Both the position numbers and the translations under genes were made by a program. This document shows, in pieces, positions 5,128 through 55,625 of a DNA stretch of 64,000 nucleotides. The notes beneath the pieces are model-generated. The model had not been told where the DNA came from. It did not search any database and saw only the letters and a program-made list of their open reading frames with translations. The stretch is from a virus (Duplodnaviria; Caudoviricetes): IMG/VR virus record IMGVR_UViG_3300034062_005355, one strand, 5' to 3'. How positions within the stretch are numbered: the stretch's first letter is position 1; every line of letters starts with the position of its first letter.

Positions 5128-5496
5128 TGACATAACCAAACTAACTTGTCCACATCCCACTGTTGATAACTATAGGAGGGGTGTTTTTTATCCACACCGA
5201 CATAGGAGGGGTGGGGATAACTAACTTATCCACATACCCCTGTCATCCCCCCCTTTGGCATGGGGGTACACCCCCCTCCCCTCCCGTATCCCCCCTTACA
5301 TACTGTCAGAATGTCAGGTTAGGGGGGATAATCCCCTATATAACGACTTTAAAAATTTTGGGAAAAAATGTTCCCTTTTTTGACTATTTATCTTATAGTA
5401 AAACTTATGTATATGAAAAAGAATTTTTGTTTATTTGTTAAGAAAATTACTTTCGGGAAAGTTTGTCTCGGATGGTGTACAATTTAATTAACTTAA

Positions 5497-6014
5497 CCCC
5501 TCCCAACAGAGGGGTTTTTTATTTAAGTGAACCACCTAAGGATTTAAGTACACCACCTATGGGGAATAAGAGCACCAACCCTTTTTTTAAACCCCATAGT
5601 ATTTATTGAATATGAATCTACAAGATACCATAAGAAAAGTTCTTAAAGAAGAAATTAAATCATCTCTCAAACTTAGACGAGTGTTAAGTATGTTGGATTA
5701 TGAGGTTGAATATAGATTAAGTTCAATTTATAGACCAGATAACATATGTAGATATGAGAGTGGTGAAGAATTATTGGATGTGGTAGGTGAGGCCGCAATT
5801 GACTCAATGTATTATAAATATTTTGGTAATATGGATGATACTTCAAAAGAATGGGAAAGAACATATTATGATATGGTCCATTATATTGATATGAAATATG
5901 GTGAAAGAATAAAAGATTATTATAATAACAATTGCGAAAATAAAGTTTAATATCCCCCCTCCCAACAGAGGGGTTTTTTATTTAAGATCACCACCTATGG
6001 GGAATAAGAGCACC
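5497..6014 (+). repeat. Direct repeats flanking gene 5612-5950
   Basis: 31-bp terminator block at 5497-5527 and 5956-5986; 26-bp block at 5551-5576 and 5989-6014. Confidence 0.9.
5612..5950 (+). CDS. Hypothetical protein, MNLQxxIRKVLKEE N-terminus
   Basis: TATTTAT 5600-5606, ATG 5612. Confidence 0.8.
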   Translation: MNLQDTIRKVLKEEIKSSLKLRRVLSMLDYEVEYRLSSIYRPDNICRYESGEELLDVVGEAAIDSMYYKYFGNMDDTSKEWERTYYDMVHYIDMKYGERIKDYYNNNCENKV

Positions 6015-6112
6015 ACCCCTTGATTTAAGAACACGACCCCCTATTTCAATTTGGTCCTAAATCCTGAAAAAAAATTTTTGGAAAATTTTGGGGAAATGTC
6101 TATCTTTGTGGA

Positions 6113-6370
6113 ATGGAAAATTTATGGTCAAAGGCTCATCATTTTATTTTGGATTCCAAGGTGGGTGATTTTTATATGTCGGGGGATAAGAAGGTTTCGG
6201 TTGTTAGGAGAAGTCCAAAGAGGATATATTTTTCCAATGGGAACATCATCTCTATAAAAACCGTTAAGGATGATGTTCATGATTTTTTTTATTTGTCGGG
6301 AAAGAATATTGATAATATGTTAAGGGATATTGAAGGTTATTTTATCTATAAGATTCATAGTAAATTATAG
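6113..6370 (+). CDS. Hypothetical protein
   Basis: TATCTTTG promoter at 6101-6108. Confidence 0.75.
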   Translation: MENLWSKAHHFILDSKVGDFYMSGDKKVSVVRRSPKRIYFSNGNIISIKTVKDDVHDFFYLSGKNIDNMLRDIEGYFIYKIHSKL

Positions 6371-6415
6371 GTTGGGGTTTTTTATTGTATTTGGTTTGGG
6401 GATATTCGTAAACCT

Positions 6416-6466
6416 CCGACCACCCGAACTCCCTTCGGTCGGTTCAATCCCCCCGCCCCCTTTTTT
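6416..6466 (+). repeat. CCGAC hairpin element, copy 1
   Basis: 32 bp identical to 7626-7657; followed by C-run and T-run. Confidence 0.9.
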
Positions 6467-6517
6467 CTGGGTTATTTGTCTTTATGTTATAACCAATTAA
6501 ACAACCTTCCCCATCTT

Positions 6518-6584
6518 ATTATGTTTATGCCACACCCATTGGTTGCATATACGATATGAATATCGGGTATGCGATAGTTAGGTT
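6518..6584 (-). mobile_element. attC-like site, family 2, copy A
   Basis: 63 bp identical to 50684-50746; on minus, ACCTAAC directly follows the stop of 6584-6856; internal hairpin. Confidence 0.65.
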
Positions 6585-6856
6585 CAATCATTAATTTGTT
6601 TTGAGTTTTCAATATATTTTAAAACCAACAAACGAAAGATAAAAGTTTTGAACGGTATTATTTTATCTGATGGTATTTTATCACCAATCCAGCGAGTAAA
6701 CCATTTTTCATGCGGATATGTTAATAATGATTCTAAAAATCTATCATAACTCATTGCTCCCATACAAGAATCACAAGCTAAATCCATTGGCAACCACCAA
6801 TCAACGTATTCTTGATGTGCTATTTTTAAAATCTCTTCTTTTTCTATTTTATTCAT
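6584..6856 (-). CDS. Cassette-borne hypothetical protein
   Basis: Start re-called at ATG 6856 after TACCTTTG (6864-6871). Confidence 0.8.
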   Translation of the reverse strand: MNKIEKEEILKIAHQEYVDWWLPMDLACDSCMGAMSYDRFLESLLTYPHEKWFTRWIGDKIPSDKIIPFKTFIFRLLVLKYIENSKQIND

Positions 6857-6888
6857 ATTTTTACAAAGGTAAAACAAATTAATGACAA

Positions 6889-6943
6889 AACCTAACAAAT
6901 GATAAACAACATTAAAACGATTGTTTATTATCGGACGTTATAA
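6889..6943 (-). mobile_element. attC-like site, family 1, copy A
   Basis: TAAC...GTTA ends, ATAAACAA/TTGTTTAT stem; 48/49 identical to 51148-51196. Confidence 0.7.
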
Positions 6944-6949
6944 GTAATA

Positions 6950-7243
6950 TTATTTTTTGATACGTTCTGCGCAAAATTTACAATTCCCTTTGTGTGTTAA
7001 AACATCGCTATGAAATGCGTTTATGTATCCGATATATTCGCAACTATCAATAACGTATAATCTCATATTTCTTATGCCGTTTCCATCAGCAGCATCAATT
7101 TTATCAATAATTGGATAAATTTTGTCAATAGGTGTTAGATCCTGTTTTGGTGTTTCGCTTCCACAACCGAAAAAAATAACAGATACTAACAGCACATAAG
7201 TAAAGACAAAGTGTCTGTGGTAAATTGATGTTATCGTTTTCAT
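6950..7243 (-). CDS. Putative lipoprotein
   Basis: Hydrophobic leader ending FFGC; CEYI and HKGNCKFC motifs; promoter 7279-7286. Confidence 0.75.
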   Translation of the reverse strand: MKTITSIYHRHFVFTYVLLVSVIFFGCGSETPKQDLTPIDKIYPIIDKIDAADGNGIRNMRLYVIDSCEYIGYINAFHSDVLTHKGNCKFCAERIKK

Positions 7244-7339
7244 ATTATATTTGTTTTTAAATTAAATTTTTATCACAACAAATATAAGAAATAAATTTTG
7301 ATTTATCTATTTTTATAAAAAAATAACTACCTTTGTGTT

Positions 7340-7606
7340 ATGGAACATGAGGAAAATAAAATACAGGAATTGGAAGGAGAAATTTTTGAGATGGGATCTA
7401 TTCTTAAGGACCATAGAGATAAGGAGAGAATTTATCAGGAGATATTATCTGACATTAATGGTTCCATAATTAATTTATTTAAAAGAGAAGAAGAGAATAT
7501 CCGATTTAATTTTGGTGAAGAAATTGATTATCGTCAATGTATGATTGGAATGAAAGAATACTTGGATAACATTAAATCTGTGTATAAGGGAAAGATTAAT
7601 TTTTAA
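7340..7606 (+). CDS. Hypothetical protein
   Basis: TACCTTTG promoter 7328-7335. Confidence 0.8.
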   Translation: MEHEENKIQELEGEIFEMGSILKDHRDKERIYQEILSDINGSIINLFKREEENIRFNFGEEIDYRQCMIGMKEYLDNIKSVYKGKINF

Positions 7607-7625
7607 TGGTGATATTCATATACCG

Positions 7626-7678
7626 CCGACCACCCGAACTCCCTTCGGTCGGTTCAAACCCCCCGCCCCCCTTTTTTT
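7626..7678 (+). repeat. CCGAC hairpin element, copy 2
   Basis: Identical 32-bp core to 6416-6447. Confidence 0.9.
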
Positions 7679-7679
7679 G

Positions 7680-7835
7680 TCATGCGGACAACTCGTTTCC
7701 ATCAGGTTTAAGTCTATAATCATCAATATTCCTTGTTGCTGACAAAAGCAAATCCATTGCTTGGGCATAGTAGTTTGCTTTAATTCTTATCTCAATATTT
7801 GAGTTTAAGATGTTTTCAAAAATATATTCTTTCAT
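7680..7835 (-). CDS. Small hypothetical protein
   Basis: Track ORF 7680-7865; likely start MKEYIF. Confidence 0.6.
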   Translation of the reverse strand: MKEYIFENILNSNIEIRIKANYYAQAMDLLLSATRNIDDYRLKPDGNELSA

Positions 7836-29114: not shown

Positions 29115-29173
29115 CTTACTAATCCCCACTCACAAGGTGGGGATTTTTGTTATTATCAAGTATTTATTGAGAT

Positions 29174-30220
29174 ATGAGAGATTTAATTAAAAAAATTTTA
29201 AATGAACAATTGTATGAAAAGTCGGTAATTGCTGAAATGGCAAAGGCGAAAGGTTATTGTGGAAAACATTTTAGTTCAATATCTCCAGAATTACCATTCT
29301 GTAACGCGGCAGAAAATTACATTAAAACTGAAATCGAACAAATTGGTAAAAGAAAATCAAAAGTAATTTTTGACAAATTTAGAAAAGGTCTTGCCAGTTT
29401 TTATGAGAAAATTGAAGACGATGTTTTAGAAATAAAAATTGAAGAACTTACCAATATTCATAATGTTGTGATTGAAGGAAAAAAAGAACTTCAAGACGCC
29501 GAAAATATGTTAAGAGGTAATTGTACAAATATTAATTACGTTGCCAAAAGACAAGTTAACTTATTGAAAGATAAGGCTCAATTATATTTTACAGGTAAAA
29601 ATGGTGAATATAGTTTAACAAACAGATTGGACACCAACTATTCAGCGATTGCTATTTTATTTACAAAATTTTTCTCAAAAAAAGGTGCGTTTGATGGTGT
29701 TGGATATGATAGTAATAATGATTGGGTAAAAATTACAAAAAATTGGATTGAACATTCATTTAATCCATCAATTAACTTTATAGACATTAGACCTGAACAC
29801 GAAAAAAATGATAAATCTGCAGAATTAAGTAGTTTAGAATTTCAAGAATTAGCAAAAATATATTTTAGTAATAGTATTACGTTTGGTTCAAGTGAAATTA
29901 GAAGTATGGTTGATGATGTTCTAACTGATGTTAGAAAGAGAGGTTTTGAAAGTGAAAAACAATTTGAAAAATCTTATTTGGATGACGGAAAAAAAGAATT
30001 TAAACGATACGCTAAAGACTATGGATTTGTTGATAGATTTTTAGGTATTGATTTTATTTATAAAGGAAAAAACTTTTGGATTCCAGTACAAGTTAAATCT
30101 AGCCCGCAAGAAGCGACATATCTGATTAGTAGTTTAGGTTGTAAAACTTATGTAATTGCCGAAAAAACAGGTAAAACTTTTAAAATTAACACATTACATT
30201 CTGATAAATTAAGTGATTAA
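29174..30220 (+). CDS. Protein with C-terminal PD-(D/E)xK-like nuclease motif
   Basis: VDRFLGIDFI...PVQVKS; KKILNEQ N-terminus. Confidence 0.55.
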   Translation: MRDLIKKILNEQLYEKSVIAEMAKAKGYCGKHFSSISPELPFCNAAENYIKTEIEQIGKRKSKVIFDKFRKGLASFYEKIEDDVLEIKIEELTNIHNVVIEGKKELQDAENMLRGNCTNINYVAKRQVNLLKDKAQLYFTGKNGEYSLTNRLDTNYSAIAILFTKFFSKKGAFDGVGYDSNNDWVKITKNWIEHSFNPSINFIDIRPEHEKNDKSAELSSLEFQELAKIYFSNSITFGSSEIRSMVDDVLTDVRKRGFESEKQFEKSYLDDGKKEFKRYAKDYGFVDRFLGIDFIYKGKNFWIPVQVKSSPQEATYLISSLGCKTYVIAEKTGKTFKINTLHSDKLSD

Positions 30221-30483: not shown

Positions 30484-31104
30484 TTCAATAATCTGTTTTA
30501 ATTTTAATAAGGTTTGTTTGTCTAATGATGAAACAACCTCTGAAGTGTTTTCAAGAACAAGTCGGTCTAATAATGATTCTTTGATTTTGTTATCGTTAAC
30601 TTCATATACCCTATCAAAAGTATGCTCACTTTCCTCAAAATTATCGTAAGAGGTTTCACGACGATTACGACCATCGTATAAATCCCAATTACCCTCTTCT
30701 CTCTGTTGGTTTGCAGAATCAATAACCCAGTCCTCATCGTAAGAATCAAAAGATTGTGTAAGATATTCTTCATATGAACAAGTACCCCAAACACTGTAGT
30801 CTAAATTATAAGTTTTTGCAACAGGTATTATAAGGTCTTCATATGATAATATATCACTTTTTTCCATAATTTTGGCAAGAATACCGTCGTTAATGTAAAG
30901 GAATTTTGCAAAGAATTGAACGTCTTCATCAACAACATTCATATTAAAATATTTTCCAATATTTTCTAATTCACTAAAATGTTCGCCGTAATCGTTATCA
31001 TTATATGGGTTATCTGTTGGGAATCCAGCATCAATTAACTTTTCCGCAATGAAGAATAATTGTTTTTTTGATACTTTTGAAAATTGACTTTGTTCTGTTG
31101 CCAT
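30463..31104 (-). CDS. Hypothetical acidic protein
   Basis: Start re-called MATEQS after TATTTAT (minus) 31109-31115. Confidence 0.8.
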   Translation of the reverse strand: MATEQSQFSKVSKKQLFFIAEKLIDAGFPTDNPYNDNDYGEHFSELENIGKYFNMNVVDEDVQFFAKFLYINDGILAKIMEKSDILSYEDLIIPVAKTYNLDYSVWGTCSYEEYLTQSFDSYDEDWVIDSANQQREEGNWDLYDGRNRRETSYDNFEESEHTFDRVYEVNDNKIKESLLDRLVLENTSEVVSSLDKQTLLKLKQIIESRLRSL

Positions 31105-37176: not shown

Positions 37177-37742
37177 CTAATCAACAACCAACAGGATTTA
37201 AAGAACTTTTAAGTGCGATGATGAAACGAAGATGGTTTATCACCGCAATCGTACTTGGTGGTTTTATGATTATCATATTTGGCATTTTTTTGGCAATTAT
37301 GGGTAAAACCCCAATGTCCTCTGAATGGAAAGAGTTACTTCTTTTATTGTTAGGTGCATTTATTGGTTCTTATGGTAAAATCATTGACTATTGGTTCAGT
37401 GATACCGACAAAGATAAAATGCTAGTCCAGAAAATGGATGAGGAGGACGGTGTATCGTTATCAAATACTACAGACATACCAAACAACCCAATCGTTCCTA
37501 TGAGTATGGTACCATTAGTTTTACCAACAAGTGAGAAAGTTGAACAACCTGTCCAAGCTAAAGTAGGTGTTGAAATCGATGAAGATGGTGATGGTGTAAT
37601 GGATGGTTTAGATTTCGATGGTGATGGTAAAATTGATGAATATTTTTCACATAGAAATTGTCAGCATGTTTGGGGTGATTCAGATGGTGACGGTGATGAA
37701 GAATGTCTTATTTGTGGATTAATTAAACCAATTGAAGAATAA
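37170..37742 (+). CDS. Two-TM protein with DxDGDG Ca-binding repeats
   Basis: DEDGDG, DFDGDG, DSDGDG. Confidence 0.75.
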   Translation: MVTNQQPTGFKELLSAMMKRRWFITAIVLGGFMIIIFGIFLAIMGKTPMSSEWKELLLLLLGAFIGSYGKIIDYWFSDTDKDKMLVQKMDEEDGVSLSNTTDIPNNPIVPMSMVPLVLPTSEKVEQPVQAKVGVEIDEDGDGVMDGLDFDGDGKIDEYFSHRNCQHVWGDSDGDGDEECLICGLIKPIEE

Positions 37743-47750: not shown

Positions 47751-48845
47751 TTAATTTGATAATGGTGCTTTAATTGATGGGTGCGATTGATAATCATTTA
47801 AATAAAAATCTTCAAATACTAATTTATCCCAGTTACCACTATTAGGTTGTAATGATGATGGTAATGTTATGGTTGGTAATGAATATGATTCTCTTGTTAT
47901 TTGTTCTTTAGCTTGCTCAACATGATTTGAATATAAATGAGTATCACCTAAGTTACCAATCAATTCATCAGGTACCATATTAACTTCTTTAGCAATGATT
48001 TCAAGTAATAATCCATAAGAAGCAATGTTGAATGGTAAACCTAAAAATGTATCTACTGAACGCTGATTCCACATTAAAGAGATTGCTCTGGTTGGAGTAT
48101 TAGTATAGTCTAGGTATTTCTTTATAATGTCTCTATCATCTCTTTTAATAGCTTCATCAATATCCATATCAATATCTATATTACATAACTTAAGCCTCTC
48201 TTCCATACTCAACTCTCTTGTAAAAAATTGAAAATCAGTATGACAAGGAGGAAGAACCATTTGGTCTAATTCACCAACGTTCCAAGCATTAACTCTATTA
48301 CGTCTTGAATCTGGGTCTGTTTTAAGTAGATTGATTGAGTTTGCGATTTGGTCTATTTCATTCCAATCATTATAAGAATTATAATCAGCCCCGTCTGTAG
48401 TGTAATTACACTCCCACTTTCTCCATTGCTTACCATAAATTGGACCTAAATCACCCCACTTTTTAGCAAACTCATTATCGATTTCGATTCGTTCTATAAA
48501 ACTTTCTTTATTGAGATATTCAAATCCCTCTAATCCGTTTTCCTTATGAGATTGAATTATAGATTTTTCATAATTCTTATAAGCATCACCATTCCAAATA
48601 TTACAACCATTATCAACTAAGTACTTAATATTTGTATCACCTCTCAAAAACCATAACAATTCCGTTACTATTGATTTAAAATGTAATTTTTTAGTTGTAA
48701 GTAAAGGAAATCCTGTTTTCATATCGTGACGGATTTGTCTACCGAATACTGAAATGGTTCCAGTTCCTGTACGATCCATTTTACGGGTACCATTATCTAA
48801 AATGTCCTGTAATAAATCTGTGTATCGTTTATCTAAATTATTCAT
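47751..48845 (-). CDS. thyA: Thymidylate synthase
   Basis: DRTGTGT, ELLWFL, LGPIYGKQWR, LPPCH, QRSVD...FN, DTHLY. Confidence 0.97.
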   Translation of the reverse strand: MNNLDKRYTDLLQDILDNGTRKMDRTGTGTISVFGRQIRHDMKTGFPLLTTKKLHFKSIVTELLWFLRGDTNIKYLVDNGCNIWNGDAYKNYEKSIIQSHKENGLEGFEYLNKESFIERIEIDNEFAKKWGDLGPIYGKQWRKWECNYTTDGADYNSYNDWNEIDQIANSINLLKTDPDSRRNRVNAWNVGELDQMVLPPCHTDFQFFTRELSMEERLKLCNIDIDMDIDEAIKRDDRDIIKKYLDYTNTPTRAISLMWNQRSVDTFLGLPFNIASYGLLLEIIAKEVNMVPDELIGNLGDTHLYSNHVEQAKEQITRESYSLPTITLPSSLQPNSGNWDKLVFEDFYLNDYQSHPSIKAPLSN

Positions 48846-49044
48846 ATCTTAATTTTATTTTATCGTAATCGGTATCATACCACTCACCATTCTCTTGTTT
48901 ATGTTCTCTGATAAGTTGTGCTAATAGGATTTCGCACAACCCTACTTCTGAACAGTCTCCTTTATCCCAACCCATCCAATTTTGTTTTGTTATTGGGTCT
49001 TCCATATTTAATAGTGATTCTATTTGGTCTCTTCTTTTATTCAT
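48838..49044 (-). CDS. Hypothetical protein
   Basis: 8-nt ATGAATAA overlaps at both ends. Confidence 0.7.
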   Translation of the reverse strand: MNKRRDQIESLLNMEDPITKQNWMGWDKGDCSEVGLCEILLAQLIREHKQENGEWYDTDYDKIKLRYE

Positions 49045-49381
49045 AACTTTCTAATTTAGTATCGTTGTATGTTATTGTGATTAGTTTTCGTGGATATAGT
49101 GTTGTACTTCCTTTGAGTACTGGGTTGGTTTGATCTACTTGTTCCAATGTTGTTCGTTCTTCAATCTTTAATCCCCACCTTTCAGAAAACTCTGTATCGG
49201 TTTTACATTTGTTGATGAATTCTTCTTGTGTATGATGAATATAATTTGGATAACCTGAGTTAAATTCTAGTCCATTTGATTTGAAATGTTTTTCTCTTTC
49301 CGAGAAAGTAATAGAACCTATTAATGCTTTTGTGTAATTCACATAAACCTCATCCAATAATTCTTGTTGTTCTTTATTCAT
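49037..49381 (-). CDS. MNKEQQELLD paralog 1
   Basis: Shared FSERWGLKIEER and KLITITYND. Confidence 0.85.
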   Translation of the reverse strand: MNKEQQELLDEVYVNYTKALIGSITFSEREKHFKSNGLEFNSGYPNYIHHTQEEFINKCKTDTEFSERWGLKIEERTTLEQVDQTNPVLKGSTTLYPRKLITITYNDTKLESYE

Positions 49382-49584
49382 AACTTTCTATTGTTAGTTG
49401 TTTCTGGTATTTTATTAATAAATGACTTCATTATATTTGGTATAGTATTTGTTTCATCGTATATCACATCATACTCACCATTATTAGACATTATCTTTAC
49501 AAATTCGTCAGATTCTTCTTTTGTTTTTTTTGCGGGAGTTCCATCCATATTAGTAACCCCACAAAATATAATCGGTTTATTCAT
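49378..49584 (-). CDS. Hypothetical protein
   Basis: Between paralogs, coupled overlaps. Confidence 0.7.
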   Translation of the reverse strand: MNKPIIFCGVTNMDGTPAKKTKEESDEFVKIMSNNGEYDVIYDETNTIPNIMKSFINKIPETTNNRKL

Positions 49585-49930
49585 AACTTTCTATTGTTTT
49601 ATCGTTGTATGTTATTGTGATTAGTTTGGTTGGGATATTCCATTTATCATAATCTTCGTGTGTACATAGATTATCACCAATCCATTTATAGTTTAATATA
49701 CCATCATTTGTTTCTTTAGGGTGTCTTTTAATATATTCATCACATCTTTCATCTCTGCTCAACTCTCGTTCCTCAATCTTTAATCCCCACCTTTCAGAGA
49801 ACTCTGTATCGGTTTTACACTTGTTGATGAATTCTTCTTTTTTAAGAGATTCTACTTGAGTAGACATTCCGGCAACGATTGAATAATTTTTATATGCCTC
49901 ATCCAATAATTCTTGTTGTTCTTTATTCAT
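49577..49930 (-). CDS. MNKEQQELLD paralog 2
   Basis: As paralog 1. Confidence 0.85.
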   Translation of the reverse strand: MNKEQQELLDEAYKNYSIVAGMSTQVESLKKEEFINKCKTDTEFSERWGLKIEERELSRDERCDEYIKRHPKETNDGILNYKWIGDNLCTHEDYDKWNIPTKLITITYNDKTIESYE

Positions 49931-50285
49931 AACTTTCTATTGTTTTATCGTTGTATGTTATTGTGATTAGTTTGGTTGGTACATTGTGTTTGTCGCACAT
50001 ATAATTAGCAAAATCAAATTCTTCCATATTAGGTGTTAGGTCGGCTATCTTCCATCTTTCCATCATATCTAACTCTCGTTCCTCAATCTTTAACCCCCAC
50101 TTTTCAGAGAATGTTTTATCGTAAGTACATAAATCAACAAACATTTCTTTGTTGGGTTTTCGGTAGGTTGATTTACCATCCAGTCGTTTAACTAAAAGAC
50201 ACATCCCAATAGAATTATCTTTTTCATATTCCTTTGAATAATTCTCATAAGCAACATCCAATAATTCTTCTTGTTCTTTATTCAT
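49923..50285 (-). CDS. MNKEQEELLD paralog 3
   Basis: Start re-called at 50285. Confidence 0.85.
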   Translation of the reverse strand: MNKEQEELLDVAYENYSKEYEKDNSIGMCLLVKRLDGKSTYRKPNKEMFVDLCTYDKTFSEKWGLKIEERELDMMERWKIADLTPNMEEFDFANYMCDKHNVPTKLITITYNDKTIESYE

Positions 50286-50287
50286 AA

Positions 50288-50662
50288 TTAATCTTTTGTA
50301 TCTGTTATTTCGTAATGTAATAACGCAAACCATAAGTTCTGCAACTGGTGGACGTACTTTATATCAAATGAAATTGGATATTTTATCCCATCATCTTTTG
50401 GGTTAGCACTATCTGTATATTCTTGATAGAAAGACCAGTTTTTAGCCCAATCCCTATATCTGAAACAGAACTTATAATCGTATATTCCTCTACACCAATA
50501 TTCACCATCTATATAAAATCTAAATTTGGTAAACCATTCATCAGTTAGTGGTATACCTTTAATATGGGATAAATCTGATTCCATACTTACACCTTTAATT
50601 TCAAGTATACCACCTAAATTATCAAATACATAATTCCCAATTCTTAATTCTGTTGATTTCAT
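50288..50662 (-). CDS. Phage protein of MKxxELRIGN type
   Basis: ELRIGNYV, IPLTDEW, IKYVHQLQNL. Confidence 0.8.
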   Translation of the reverse strand: MKSTELRIGNYVFDNLGGILEIKGVSMESDLSHIKGIPLTDEWFTKFRFYIDGEYWCRGIYDYKFCFRYRDWAKNWSFYQEYTDSANPKDDGIKYPISFDIKYVHQLQNLWFALLHYEITDTKD

Positions 50663-50683
50663 GTTATTCTTTATTCATTTTTA

Positions 50684-50750
50684 ATTATGTTTATGCCACA
50701 CCCATTGGTTGCATATACGATATGAATATCGGGTATGCGATAGTTATATT
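50684..50750 (-). mobile_element. attC-like site, family 2, copy B
   Basis: 63 bp identical to 6518-6580; ends GTTATATT. Confidence 0.65.
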
Positions 50751-50764
50751 CAATATCAAAAATT

Positions 50765-51121
50765 TTATGGTTTTATAGAAATTGAATTAAACCACTTGAG
50801 TTCAGATGTTAATTCATTCAACTTACCTTCGTATTTAACTATTTTATTTTCGTTCAATGGTTCGGATATTTTATAACCACCATCAATCTTTATATGTTTA
50901 GTTTCTTTTTGATTTAGTTTGGAATGAATATTACCAATCCTCTCATTTATTGATTTAACATTCATATCAATAACCCATCTAACATCATCTATATTATGTT
51001 TAGATAATTCTTCAACAACTCCATTCCATTTAGTAATGAGTTTTGTTTCTAAATCAAAAACTAAACCACGTTGTCCGCCAAGACAACCATCTTCTTCAAA
51101 CCATTCAATTTCTTTTTTCAT
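50765..51121 (-). CDS. Cassette-borne hypothetical protein
   Basis: Flanked by GTTATATT (50743) / AATATAAC (51144). Confidence 0.8.
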   Translation of the reverse strand: MKKEIEWFEEDGCLGGQRGLVFDLETKLITKWNGVVEELSKHNIDDVRWVIDMNVKSINERIGNIHSKLNQKETKHIKIDGGYKISEPLNENKIVKYEGKLNELTSELKWFNSISIKP

Positions 51122-51143
51122 ATGTATAAATTTTTTGATACTA

Positions 51144-51201
51144 AATATAACAAATGATAAACAACATTAAAACGATTGTTTATCATCGGACGTTATGTGT
51201 A
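51144..51201 (-). mobile_element. attC-like site, family 1, copy B
   Basis: TAAC-aaa-TGATAAACAA...TTGTTTATCA-tcggac-GTTA. Confidence 0.7.
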
Positions 51202-51218
51202 ATAAATTAATTTTTATG

Positions 51219-51512
51219 TTATTTTTGATTTAAAACCATTCTCGAAAGTGATTTACCAATTACACCCCAATTATTCTTAAAAAAATCTTCACCTTCTGGA
51301 GAGTTGTTCCAAAACATAAACCCATCACTCTTTTCAATCTCTTTCATTATATTAAGTGATTTTTCAACAGTTATTTCATCTGTTCGTAGTTCCAAAGGAA
51401 CATTTCTACCAATTTGTACCACACCATTTTTATCTTTATAAGTGTATCCAACCAAACCCATTGGTAAATCACAAAAAACTAAGTTCTTAAAATAAATTTC
51501 TCTTGTTGTCAT
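51219..51512 (-). CDS. Cassette-borne hypothetical protein
   Basis: Flanked by GTTATGTGTA (51192) / TACACATAAC (51550); own promoter 51526-51533. Confidence 0.8.
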   Translation of the reverse strand: MTTREIYFKNLVFCDLPMGLVGYTYKDKNGVVQIGRNVPLELRTDEITVEKSLNIMKEIEKSDGFMFWNNSPEGEDFFKNNWGVIGKSLSRMVLNQK

Positions 51513-51549
51513 AATATTTTTTTTTCAAAGGTATAAAAATTAATTTACA

Positions 51550-51589
51550 TACACATAACAAATGATAAACAACATTAAAACGATTGTTT
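51550..51589 (-). mobile_element. attC-like site, family 1, truncated copy C
   Basis: 34 bp (51556-51589) identical to copy B, then breaks off at the next gene's stop. Confidence 0.65.
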
Positions 51590-51591
51590 CT

Positions 51592-51897
51592 TTATTCATT
51601 TTCTAATCCATCGTTAAGTGTGGCGTCCCAATCTGAAAATTCTTTCATCTCATCTTCAGTATATTCATAAGCACCATCAGGACCAATTTGAAAGTCATCA
51701 GATACATATGGTGTAAAAACCTCGTCATATTCACCTTTAATATGTTCGTTAACTGTTGCATCTGCATACCCTGCCGCTTTTAATAAGCCTTTTAAAGCAT
51801 CACAAAGTTCTCCTAAACTCACATCGCATGATAATTCTGCTGTGAACTTTCTACCATAATGTGATATTGTTACTATTGTTTGTTCTGGTTTAATCAT
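51592..51897 (-). CDS. Hypothetical protein
   Basis: DDFQIGPDGAYE motif. Confidence 0.75.
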   Translation of the reverse strand: MIKPEQTIVTISHYGRKFTAELSCDVSLGELCDALKGLLKAAGYADATVNEHIKGEYDEVFTPYVSDDFQIGPDGAYEYTEDEMKEFSDWDATLNDGLENE

Positions 51898-55111: not shown

Positions 55112-55625
55112 AACACAAATCTAACACTTTTTCCTCAAACCACAAAGGTTTTTCTCTACCTTTCCAAACAGCAAATCCTGATTTTGCTCCCATATAATAA
55201 TTCCTATATGATTGAACAATTGATTTTACTTTAAATTCGTCAGGCATTGCCTTTGCCGGTTCAGTAAAACCAATATCAGGTATGTTTGGTTTATTAACCA
55301 AACACCATTCAATAACATCTTGAGATTTATGTCGTTTACCGTATCGGTAGGTATATTCATTACACAACTCCAAACCTAATTCACATAAATAAAGATAGTT
55401 GGATAAACTCTCACGAGCCCAAATAGAACATGGATGGTTTTTGTGTGATAACTTGTACGGTACATGTGCGGTATCATGTGCGGTATCATGTGCGGTATCA
55501 TGTGCGGTTACATGATGAACACCGCATAAAAGTTGTGCAGTTTCCAATATCATTTTAACAACATGTTTATCAACATGATATTGAGCACACTTTTTTACAT
55601 CATAATCGAGGAAAAATATATTCAT
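55104..55625 (-). CDS. Pyrimidine-dimer DNA glycosylase family (DenV-like)
   Basis: MNIFFLD...DKHVVKMILETAQLL, HKNHP, YTYRYGKRH. Confidence 0.8.
   Translation of the reverse strand: MNIFFLDYDVKKCAQYHVDKHVVKMILETAQLLCGVHHVTAHDTAHDTAHDTAHVPYKLSHKNHPCSIWARESLSNYLYLCELGLELCNEYTYRYGKRHKSQDVIEWCLVNKPNIPDIGFTEPAKAMPDEFKVKSIVQSYRNYYMGAKSGFAVWKGREKPLWFEEKVLDLCYE
55463..55510 (-). repeat. In-frame 12-bp tandem repeat (HDTA units)
   Basis: catgtgcggtat x3 plus a variant unit. Confidence 0.9.

Follow-up and report, generated by a model that had tools for sequence, protein, structure and literature searches.

The subject of this report is positions 50684-51589 of a 64,000-nt stretch of DNA from the IMG/VR virus record IMGVR_UViG_3300034062_005355 (the whole stretch is referred to as the window). 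Here, two small genes lie between repeated hairpin sites, and each gene is framed by two ends that are complementary to one another. The region is best read as a recombinase-less remnant of an integron-like cassette system that is common in Bacteroidota phages, a reading to which a probability of roughly 0.7 is given. Judging from their sequences, relatives of this phage appear to run the cassette system with a small Xer-like recombinase and not with the classical integron integrase. The observations that carry the reading are the architecture of the sites, the covariation of the cassette ends, the asymmetries of strand and linkage, the recombinase adjoining the arrays of relatives and the replacement of cassettes between related phages.

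The source is a lake-water giant phage of Bacteroidota with a genomic G+C content of about 30%. The link to Bacteroidota is an encoded sorting domain of the type IX secretion system (T9SS); a thymidylate synthase and a T4-type RNA ligase are encoded as well.

Arrays of the window and their matched ends

All four small genes of 50288-51897 in the list of open reading frames (ORFs) lie on the minus strand. The window contains two mini-arrays, which consist of the following features:

50684-50746, minus strand: family 1 terminal element, copy B (64-nt repeat)
50743-50768, minus strand: cassette 1, 3' arm (GTTATATTCAATATCAAAAATTTTAT; 23/26 arm match)
50765-51121, minus strand: cassette 1 cargo gene, 118 aa, hypothetical (ORF)
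51126-51151, minus strand: cassette 1, 5' arm, with TAAC at its end (arm match)
51148-51195, minus strand: complete hairpin site B (core match and fold)
51192-51217, minus strand: cassette 2, 3' arm (GTTATGTGTAATAAATTAATTTTTAT; arm match)
51219-51512, minus strand: cassette 2 cargo gene, 97 aa (ORF)
51533-51559, minus strand: cassette 2, 5' arm, with TACACATAAC at its end (arm match)
51556-51589, minus strand: truncated hairpin site C
6518-6580, minus strand: family 1 terminal element, copy A (64-nt repeat shared with copy B)
6577-6896, minus strand: cassette 3, arms GTTAGGTTCAATCATTAATTTGTTTT / GTTAGGTTTTGTCATTAATTTGTTTT, gene 6584-6856 (23/26 arm match)
6893-6940, minus strand: complete hairpin site A, with one stem mismatch (core match)
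6937-7338, minus strand: cassette 4, 3' arm GTTATAAGTAAT, gene 6950-7243, degenerate upstream end

Three cassettes have complete ends (50743-51151, 51192-51559 and 6577-6896). Each of them carries one gene, which is enclosed by an inverted repeat (GTTA...TAAC) with arms of about 26 nt. In cassette 1 the 26-nt arms 50743-50768 and 51126-51151 are 88% complementary, in cassette 2 a single 1-nt indel interrupts the match of about 26 nt between the arms 51192-51217 and 51533-51559, and in cassette 3 the arms match at 23/26 positions. All 3613 GTTA/TAAC pairs of the window that are spaced 90-1600 nt served as background: a score of 23/26 is reached by the cassettes 50743-51151 and 6577-6896, while unrelated pairs reach 18/26 at most.

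A preliminary description of the region had paired GTTATATT (50743-50750) with AATATAAC (51144-51151) and GTTATGTGTA (51192-51201) with TACACATAAC (51550-51559), and all of these coordinates hold. The octamer and the decamer are indeed exact, but the matched ends had been reported too short at 8-10 nt, as the complementarity reaches about 26 nt. The ends had also been called cassette-specific. They do match within a cassette, but they are not unique to one gene, and in other phages arms of the same families border unrelated genes. An arm identical to the 3' arm of cassette 1 borders other genes in the IMG/VR loci L049, L101, L104 and others.

A complete hairpin site measures 48 nt and is composed of TAAC, 2 nt, an 11-bp stem with its loop, 5 nt and GTTA. 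On the plus strand, site B reads TAAC AA ATGATAAACAA CATTAAAACGA TTGTTTATCAT CGGAC GTTA, with a loop of 11 nt and unpaired spacers. The window has three exact copies of its 28-nt core ATGATAAACAACATTAAAACGATTGTTT (6899, 51154 and 51562), with an expectation of 0. The hairpin at 51556-51589 (site C) is not a full copy of the repeat: it is intact from TAAC through the 2-nt spacer and the first stem arm to the end of the loop, but breaks off 6 nt into the second stem arm, where it runs into the stop codon of gene 51592-51897. Untruncated forms of this junction are present in other contigs. In a strain variant 95.6% identical to the window (L125:1900-1949, Ga0208599_1007159), the site C hairpin (about 51556-51600) is untruncated and its spacers are swapped about the loop (TAAC GTCCG stem CATTAAAACGA stem TT G), which looks like a flip of the loop. 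The site is at the end of a contig and may have arisen in the assembly.

The family 1 terminal element is built differently. In copy B, a 4-nt spacer separates the hairpin (GCATATACGATAT / ATATCGGGTATGC) from GTTA; the copy has no TAAC on the far side and closes the array at the side where relatives have their recombinase. No copy of the family 1 hairpin was found in IMG/VR, and in the metagenome scan it was seen only in the same phage and in one strain variant. Both mini-arrays share one layout: family 1 element, cassette, 48-nt hairpin, cassette, decayed end. Rfam gave no match. A cluster of attC sites lacking an integron integrase (CALIN) is defined by two or more attC sites recognized by the attC covariance model and by the lack of an integrase close by. 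For comparison, our own motif and fold detection yielded two sites that are complete, a truncated one and two terminal elements, while an integrase is absent from the 64 kb.

In cassette 4 the upstream end is degenerate: CAC replaces TAAC, and the AACAAATATAAGAAAT-type site behind it has decayed. The 6.5-7.3 kb array ends upstream, at 7244-7338, in a decayed site that belongs to another hairpin family (AACAAATATAAGAAATAAATTTTG...) and whose GTTA extends over the start of the divergent gene 7340-7606 on the plus strand. A homologue of cassette 4 in L032 is 51% identical, carries a different tag (the 6 nt of the arm beside GTTA) and is matched at both its ends.

The cargo of the arrays is largely anonymous. 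For the cassette 1 protein there was no match in Pfam, PHROG or Atlas. Gene 51219-51512 gave a weak, sub-threshold GNAT-like lead in profile libraries, and apart from this lead Pfam, PHROGs and Atlas assign no function to the other cargo genes of the window. A Bacteroidota-type -7 box (TACCTTTG) is located 13 nt 5' of the ATG of gene 51219-51512 and 7 nt before the ATG of the cassette 3 gene 6584-6856. In the lake-metagenome run X15, 94 nt of contig 7 are identical to the start of gene 51219-51512 (window 51430-51523), beyond which the contig carries another 5'-arm tag (...TTAATTTAGAACTATAT vs ...TTAATTTACATACACAT in the window).

Cassettes, crossover and recombinase in other phages

Outside the window, the exact 28-nt core was found in more than 117 IMG/VR phage contigs of 4-464 kb. 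Among 185,579 prokaryote genomes it occurs only in two short contigs of metagenome-assembled genomes, and the comparison of the window with INPHARED gave tiny matches only. A 39-mer of the window has no exact copy in IMG/VR. More than 50 of the about 100 distinct hairpin copies have, 150-650 nt downstream, a TAAC-anchored arm that is exactly complementary to the GTTA-anchored arm over 8-10 nt. GTTA-anchored pairs numbered 438 vs about 98 in shuffled sequences (4-5 times more), a number that also lies above that of every other anchor tested. A generic finder for TAAC-hairpin-GTTA (846 hits vs 365 in shuffles) was dropped for arm-anchored detection because it was too unspecific.

From the IMG/VR phage contigs, 232 distinct cassettes with matched ends were collected. 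Almost all of them are mutually unrelated, a single ORF on the predicted strand is present in 216/232 (median coding fraction of 0.78), and 81 different 6-nt tags occur. Homologous cassette genes mostly have the same tag (20 pairs). In two clean cases, the homologues carry different tags, each of which is matched at both ends.

The sites between the cassettes (85 distinct ones) range from 48 to 136 nt, with a median of 115 nt. In 68/85 of them, TAAC is followed by a spacer of 1-2 nt and GTTA is preceded by one of 5 nt, so that the attC-type form, an imperfect palindrome with unpaired spacers, is found in these 68 as well as in sites A and B of the window. The boxes only approximate the attC consensus (ATAAC / GTTAT vs RYYYAAC / GTTRRRY). 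In the 48-nt class, the 11-bp stem is kept through at least 32 different, fully compensated stem sequences. The longer sites have mismatches at recurring positions, where an A.C on the plus-type strand corresponds to a G.T on the coding strand. The two strands are indeed not equivalent: the coding strand folds more stably in 79/85 sites (p = 4e-13), arm transitions, positions 9-11 excepted, allow wobble pairing on the coding strand in 46 cases vs 13, and in all cases with a 10-nt run the 3' arm has an A at position 11 and the 5' arm a G. On the 5' side, TAnnTTTG boxes were detected in 43/232 cassettes vs 8-12 in controls, and also in two window cassettes. Some cassettes thus probably carry their own promoter, as the preliminary description had stated for at least one.

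At the DNA level, clustering of the cassettes gave 15 homologous pairs, too few to assign the hairpin that travels with a cassette, and tag diversity was used instead. In 93 distinct hairpin contexts, the TAAC-side arm displays 25 tags (3.9 bits) and the GTTA-side arm 52 tags (5.3 bits). From this asymmetry it follows that the hairpin stays with the TAAC-side cassette and that exchange takes place beside GTTA, at its junction with the spacer. In the recombinase-terminated array of IMGVR_UViG_3300044846_003029 (G001), a homologue of the cassette 2 protein was found that is 86-88% identical. The homologous cassette is 89% identical to the 51219-51512 cassette from one hairpin core to the next, and on one side the similarity between window and G001 ends exactly beside GTTA (spacer CGGAC in the window vs CAACC in G001). 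A replacement could be observed as well: the flanks of L015 and L076 are 95-97% identical to those of L082, two cassettes are replaced with one, and the boundaries of the replacement are exactly GTTA and TAAC.

The sites that flank one cassette are less than 60% identical in 37/46 cases, and plain homology therefore cannot excise those cassettes, which are the majority. When the circle junctions were built in silico, they formed hairpins of about 100 nt (-18 to -21 kcal/mol, z -6 to -8), compared to -4.5 to -9.9 kcal/mol for the same sites in their array context.

Other forms of rearrangement were considered and rejected. The indels between L098 and L113 lie inside genes and are unrelated to cassette exchange. 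Inversion, as in a shufflon or a Bacteroides-type inverton, was excluded because the arm asymmetry is constant relative to hairpin polarity. A transposon with terminal inverted repeats was also discarded; the units are without flanking target duplication.

The most recurrent ORF family in the fetched hairpin loci (13/117) is a tyrosine recombinase of about 265 aa with the domains PF00589 (6e-36) and Phage_int_SAM_4. In 12/12 inspected cases it is located on the cassette-coding strand, 55-95 nt after the 3' arm and TAAC of the last cassette, and in 11/12 a TA-rich stretch resembling TAnnATATAT follows this TAAC. The closest relatives of the enzyme are XerA/XerC/XerD (4a8e, 1.4e-37; NF040815, 184-194 bits, below cutoff). 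With the IntI profile TIGR02249 it scores 151-159 bits vs a cutoff of 265, and in comparison to VchIntIA (2a3v) it has 29 residues where IntI has 77, which amounts to about 48 fewer at the IntI-specific insert. An IntI-like tyrosine recombinase had been anticipated for the system: a recombinase does stand at array ends in relatives, but it is Xer-like and without the IntI-specific insert. In metagenomes, 5129 clusters of homologues were found (E ≤ 1e-30), and the sources that name them say only XerD.

Of ten large contigs with the hairpin, four have the recombinase gene intact and four have remnants of it. That the enzyme is lost while the arrays are kept seems to be common. The remnant contigs are L130, L131, L132 and L135 (contigs G006, G005, G004 and G011), of which G004-G006 are jumbo phage genomes (98-100% complete) and G011 is 76% complete. 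The remnants comprise an N-terminal piece of 35 aa or 105 aa, a split gene and a C-terminal piece with stops.

In the preliminary description, the units were proposed to be excisable cassettes of an integron-like system, and this proposal is supported. Gene content varies between sites among relatives, as seen from the 232 cassettes, from the homologue of cassette 2 in another array and from L015/L076 vs L082. The ends co-vary in further copies, more than 50 times beside the window hairpin alone and also in the homologues with different tags, and a recombinase is present in relatives.

A mechanism can be proposed on this basis. The unit is one small minus-strand gene, with GTTA and a 6-nt tag at the start, the complementary tag and TAAC at the end, and a tag complementarity that extends imperfectly to about 26 nt. 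Imperfect palindromes (TAAC, 1-2 nt, stem, loop, stem, 5 nt, GTTA) are the separators. When single-stranded, the coding strand, which corresponds to the bottom strand of an integron, would fold and become the substrate. The Xer-like tyrosine recombinase may then bind both the TAAC/GTTA box and the 11-bp stem, spanning the unpaired spacers, and would catalyze the exchange of one strand at GTTA, next to the 5-nt spacer. In the excised circle, the two cassette arms would be rejoined, generating the hairpin of about 100 nt. With the plus strand as top strand, the order is that of an integron (recombinase, attI-like spacer, GTTA, cassette, TAAC, hairpin and GTTA), and the crossover would be placed between the G and TTA in both GTTA boxes.

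In its most far-reaching form, the proposal describes an IntI-independent analogue of the integron. The Xer-like enzyme would act on coding-strand hairpins, and every cassette would have an address of its own: pairing of its arms, in the circle or around a looped-out gene, would create a second binding arm of 10-11 bp beside the 11-bp stem. Giant Bacteroidota phages would trade accessory genes in this way, many of them, including this one, being enzyme-less and dependent on co-infecting relatives. This complete version is put forward tentatively, at slightly less than even odds.

Comparison with known systems and rival explanations

The resemblance to integrons and CALINs is considerable. Single-gene cassettes are arrayed between imperfect palindromes, which run from ...TAAC to GTTA...; the central spacers are unpaired, features are strand-specific and the cassettes are very diverse. 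Outside the boxes, the bases pair with those at the other end of the cassette and not within the site. In relatives the recombinase is found at one end by an attI-like spacer, in the same geometry as in an integron. The two ends of an integron cassette are complementary because the crossover lies in GTT; complementary ends were found here in 3/3 complete window cassettes and in more than 50 elsewhere, with the crossover beside GTTA.

In other respects the system differs from integrons. The enzyme of the relatives is a 265-aa Xer-like protein without about 48 residues of the IntI-specific insert and below the TIGR02249 cutoff, and the window itself has no recombinase. Integron cassettes are mostly promoterless and encoded on the top strand, whereas the crossover polarity places the genes here on the bottom-strand equivalent, some with their own promoters (TAnnTTTG in 43/232). 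The end complementarity spans about 26 nt instead of 7, the strands are told apart by conserved mismatch or wobble positions, with no extrahelical bases identified, and the short site class has an invariant loop.

CALINs in phages have been published before. Qi et al. (2023; PMC9892861) reported them in 17 phages, including the Polaribacter phage P12002L, in which a site named P12002L_attC1 was called by HattCI. In their IntI1 x attI1 assay, P12002L_attC1 gave no recombinants and attC2 recombined. At about 30009-30056 of P12002L (L136) we found TAAC AA, an 11-bp stem, CATTAAAACGA, the second stem arm, TAGCC and GTTA, which fits the published primer sequence of P12002L_attC1 and belongs to the same hairpin family as the window sites. 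The preliminary description had known of no characterised equivalent in Bacteroidota phages. This has to be corrected for the P12002L CALIN and its attC1. No paper was found in the literature on the link to a Xer-like recombinase, on the long arms or on how widely the system is distributed. Methyltransferase and Mom-like genes of P12002L lie in cassettes with matched tags, and the cargo there includes DNA methyltransferases. The CATTAAAACGA loop also occurs at P12002L 30910-30957. A terminal element of about 70 nt (29166-29240 and 37200-37266, ending ...CCGTT GTTA) stands at the same end of both P12002L arrays and equals the published P12002L_attC2, the site recombined by IntI1. Its position is like that of window family 1, its sequence unrelated.

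The recombinase of the relatives is nearest to XerA/XerC/XerD. The attP of CTX-phi is a forked hairpin, on which Xer recombination proceeds on the folded single strand, and the folded site described here, in which an unpaired spacer separates two arms of about 11 bp, resembles it. Unlike in the dif systems of XerA/XerC/XerD, there is no 28-bp duplex dif-like site, and the sites are arrayed between cassettes.

Several observations weigh against an integron-like remnant. The arms and the module of hairpin, 5' arm and promoter region recur before unrelated genes, which a simple unit of gene and own site does not explain. The folding bias towards the coding strand would be equally expected from a function at the RNA level. 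No recombinase homologue is present in the 64 kb (tblastn of the recombinase gives only E > 1), as already stated in the preliminary description for the integrase. At least 18 metagenome runs of lake water or freshwater (2016-2024) contain the 2.5-kb array near word-for-word, and its constancy over this period means that no ongoing shuffling is visible at the consensus level. P12002L_attC1, of the same family as the window hairpin, is the one site on which IntI1 failed. Lastly, the loop CATTAAAACGA is present in every 48-49-nt site found without selecting for the loop. The loops of integron attC sites are variable, and to our knowledge a constant loop is not needed by them. The constancy of CATTAAAACGA (IMG/VR loci L001-L177 and the P12002L sites) might reflect a protein contact or a regulatory signal.

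Some of these points would suit composite terminator-promoter modules comparable to the promoter-early stem-loops (PeSLs) of T4-type phages (Arbiol et al. 2010; Comeau et al. 2014; PMC2839356, PMC4122927). The hairpin would end the upstream transcript, the arm would carry the next promoter, and shuffling would proceed by homologous recombination without a dedicated enzyme. PeSLs are repeated modules of a stem-loop and a promoter that separate small accessory genes in the plastic regions of large virulent phages. They serve as exchange points for single genes or blocks of genes, and both modular shuffling of this kind and mini-circles result. The conservation of the hairpin, 5' arm and promoter-region module before unrelated genes fits this explanation, as do the enrichment of TAnnTTTG on the 5' side, including two window cassettes, the preferential folding of the hairpins on the transcribed strand and the missing recombinase. 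It does not predict, however, the complementary ends, the fixed 2- and 5-nt spacers, the constant 11-bp stem or the TAAC and GTTA boxes. PeSL exchange is described as homologous recombination of similar repeats, and the abstracts of the two papers mention no recombinase and no complementary ends, whereas the flanking sites found here are mostly too dissimilar for homologous exchange (<60% identity in 37/46 cassettes) and the recombinase is placed precisely at the array ends in relatives. PeSL-like modules are accordingly regarded as an unlikely explanation for the arrays, and a regulatory role may well exist alongside recombination.

A function of the arms in RNA is a further rival: the 5' and 3' arms would pair in read-through transcripts and enclose the ORF in a stem of about 26 bp, leading to RNase III-type processing or protection of single-gene mRNAs. 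The wobble bias of the coding strand (46 vs 13 in the arms; 79/85 sites) points in this direction, together with the conserved G.U at arm position 11, often accompanied by U.G at position 9, and the co-orientation of all cassettes. One contig from an RNA library covers a gene start, the hairpin and the next cassette end, which is weak evidence because such libraries can contain DNA. But the -7 boxes, in those cassettes that have one, are placed at the inner arm edge or past it; a transcript from the cassette's own promoter would therefore be without the 5' arm, and the invariant TAAC and GTTA, the recombinase at array ends and the exact replacement bounded by the boxes are left unexplained; RNA processing is thus considered improbable as the origin of the pattern. 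As for chance products of AT-rich sequence around ordinary terminators, a genome of about 30% G+C would favor them, and GTTA-anchored inverted repeats of 10 nt, taken alone, should turn up a few times per window. This is refuted by the arm scores (23/26 vs a background maximum of 18/26), the three copies of the 28-mer vs 0 expected, the excess of GTTA pairs over shuffles and the recurrence of the pattern in hundreds of cassettes elsewhere, which leave chance with next to no credibility.

State of the arrays and significance

The two arrays of the window are considered an orphan, CALIN-like remnant of the integron-like system because the window lacks a recombinase, the terminal elements are private, one site is truncated and the array did not change in the lake metagenomes between 2016 and 2024. 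The missing enzyme and the truncated site would make the arrays fossils unless a recombinase acts in trans, and locally they are probably inert. The metagenome comparison was performed on Logan contigs, which are broken at repeats, and its joints and loose ends mostly stem from the second copy or from other phages.

Other repeats are found near the arrays. At 48838-50662, small paralogous minus-strand genes stand in tandem (49037-49381, 49577-49930 and 49923-50333), with overlapping starts and stops (ATGAATAAAGAA motif), long direct repeats and no TAAC/GTTA boundaries. ORF 50288-50662 perhaps belongs to the same paralogue family, the link being a repeated start-region motif only. Homologues of these genes form 2-3 tandem copies in L058, L059 and L095. 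Between small plus-strand genes at 5140-6470 and 7610-7680, repeated G+C-rich intergenic modules occur (e.g. ...CCCCTCCCAACAGAGGGGTTTTTTATTTAAG...CACCACCTATGGGGAATAAGAGCACCA... and CCGACCACCCGAACTCCCTTCGGTCGG...), which resemble a terminator hairpin with a conserved box and form a repeat system distinct from the cassette sites. The 12-mer CATGTGCGGTAT is repeated four times in tandem at 55463-55510.

If the integron-like reading is true, integron-style cassette capture would not be tied to the IntI lineage, and a parallel Xer-like system would exist in large virulent phages of Bacteroidota from freshwater and marine environments. This would explain why attC-finding software makes CALIN calls in phages without an integrase. 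How recombination sites become joined to unrelated genes is an open question for integrons, for which a second, independent system would become available. For the phages themselves, the cassettes would provide a defined route by which small accessory genes are swapped between them.

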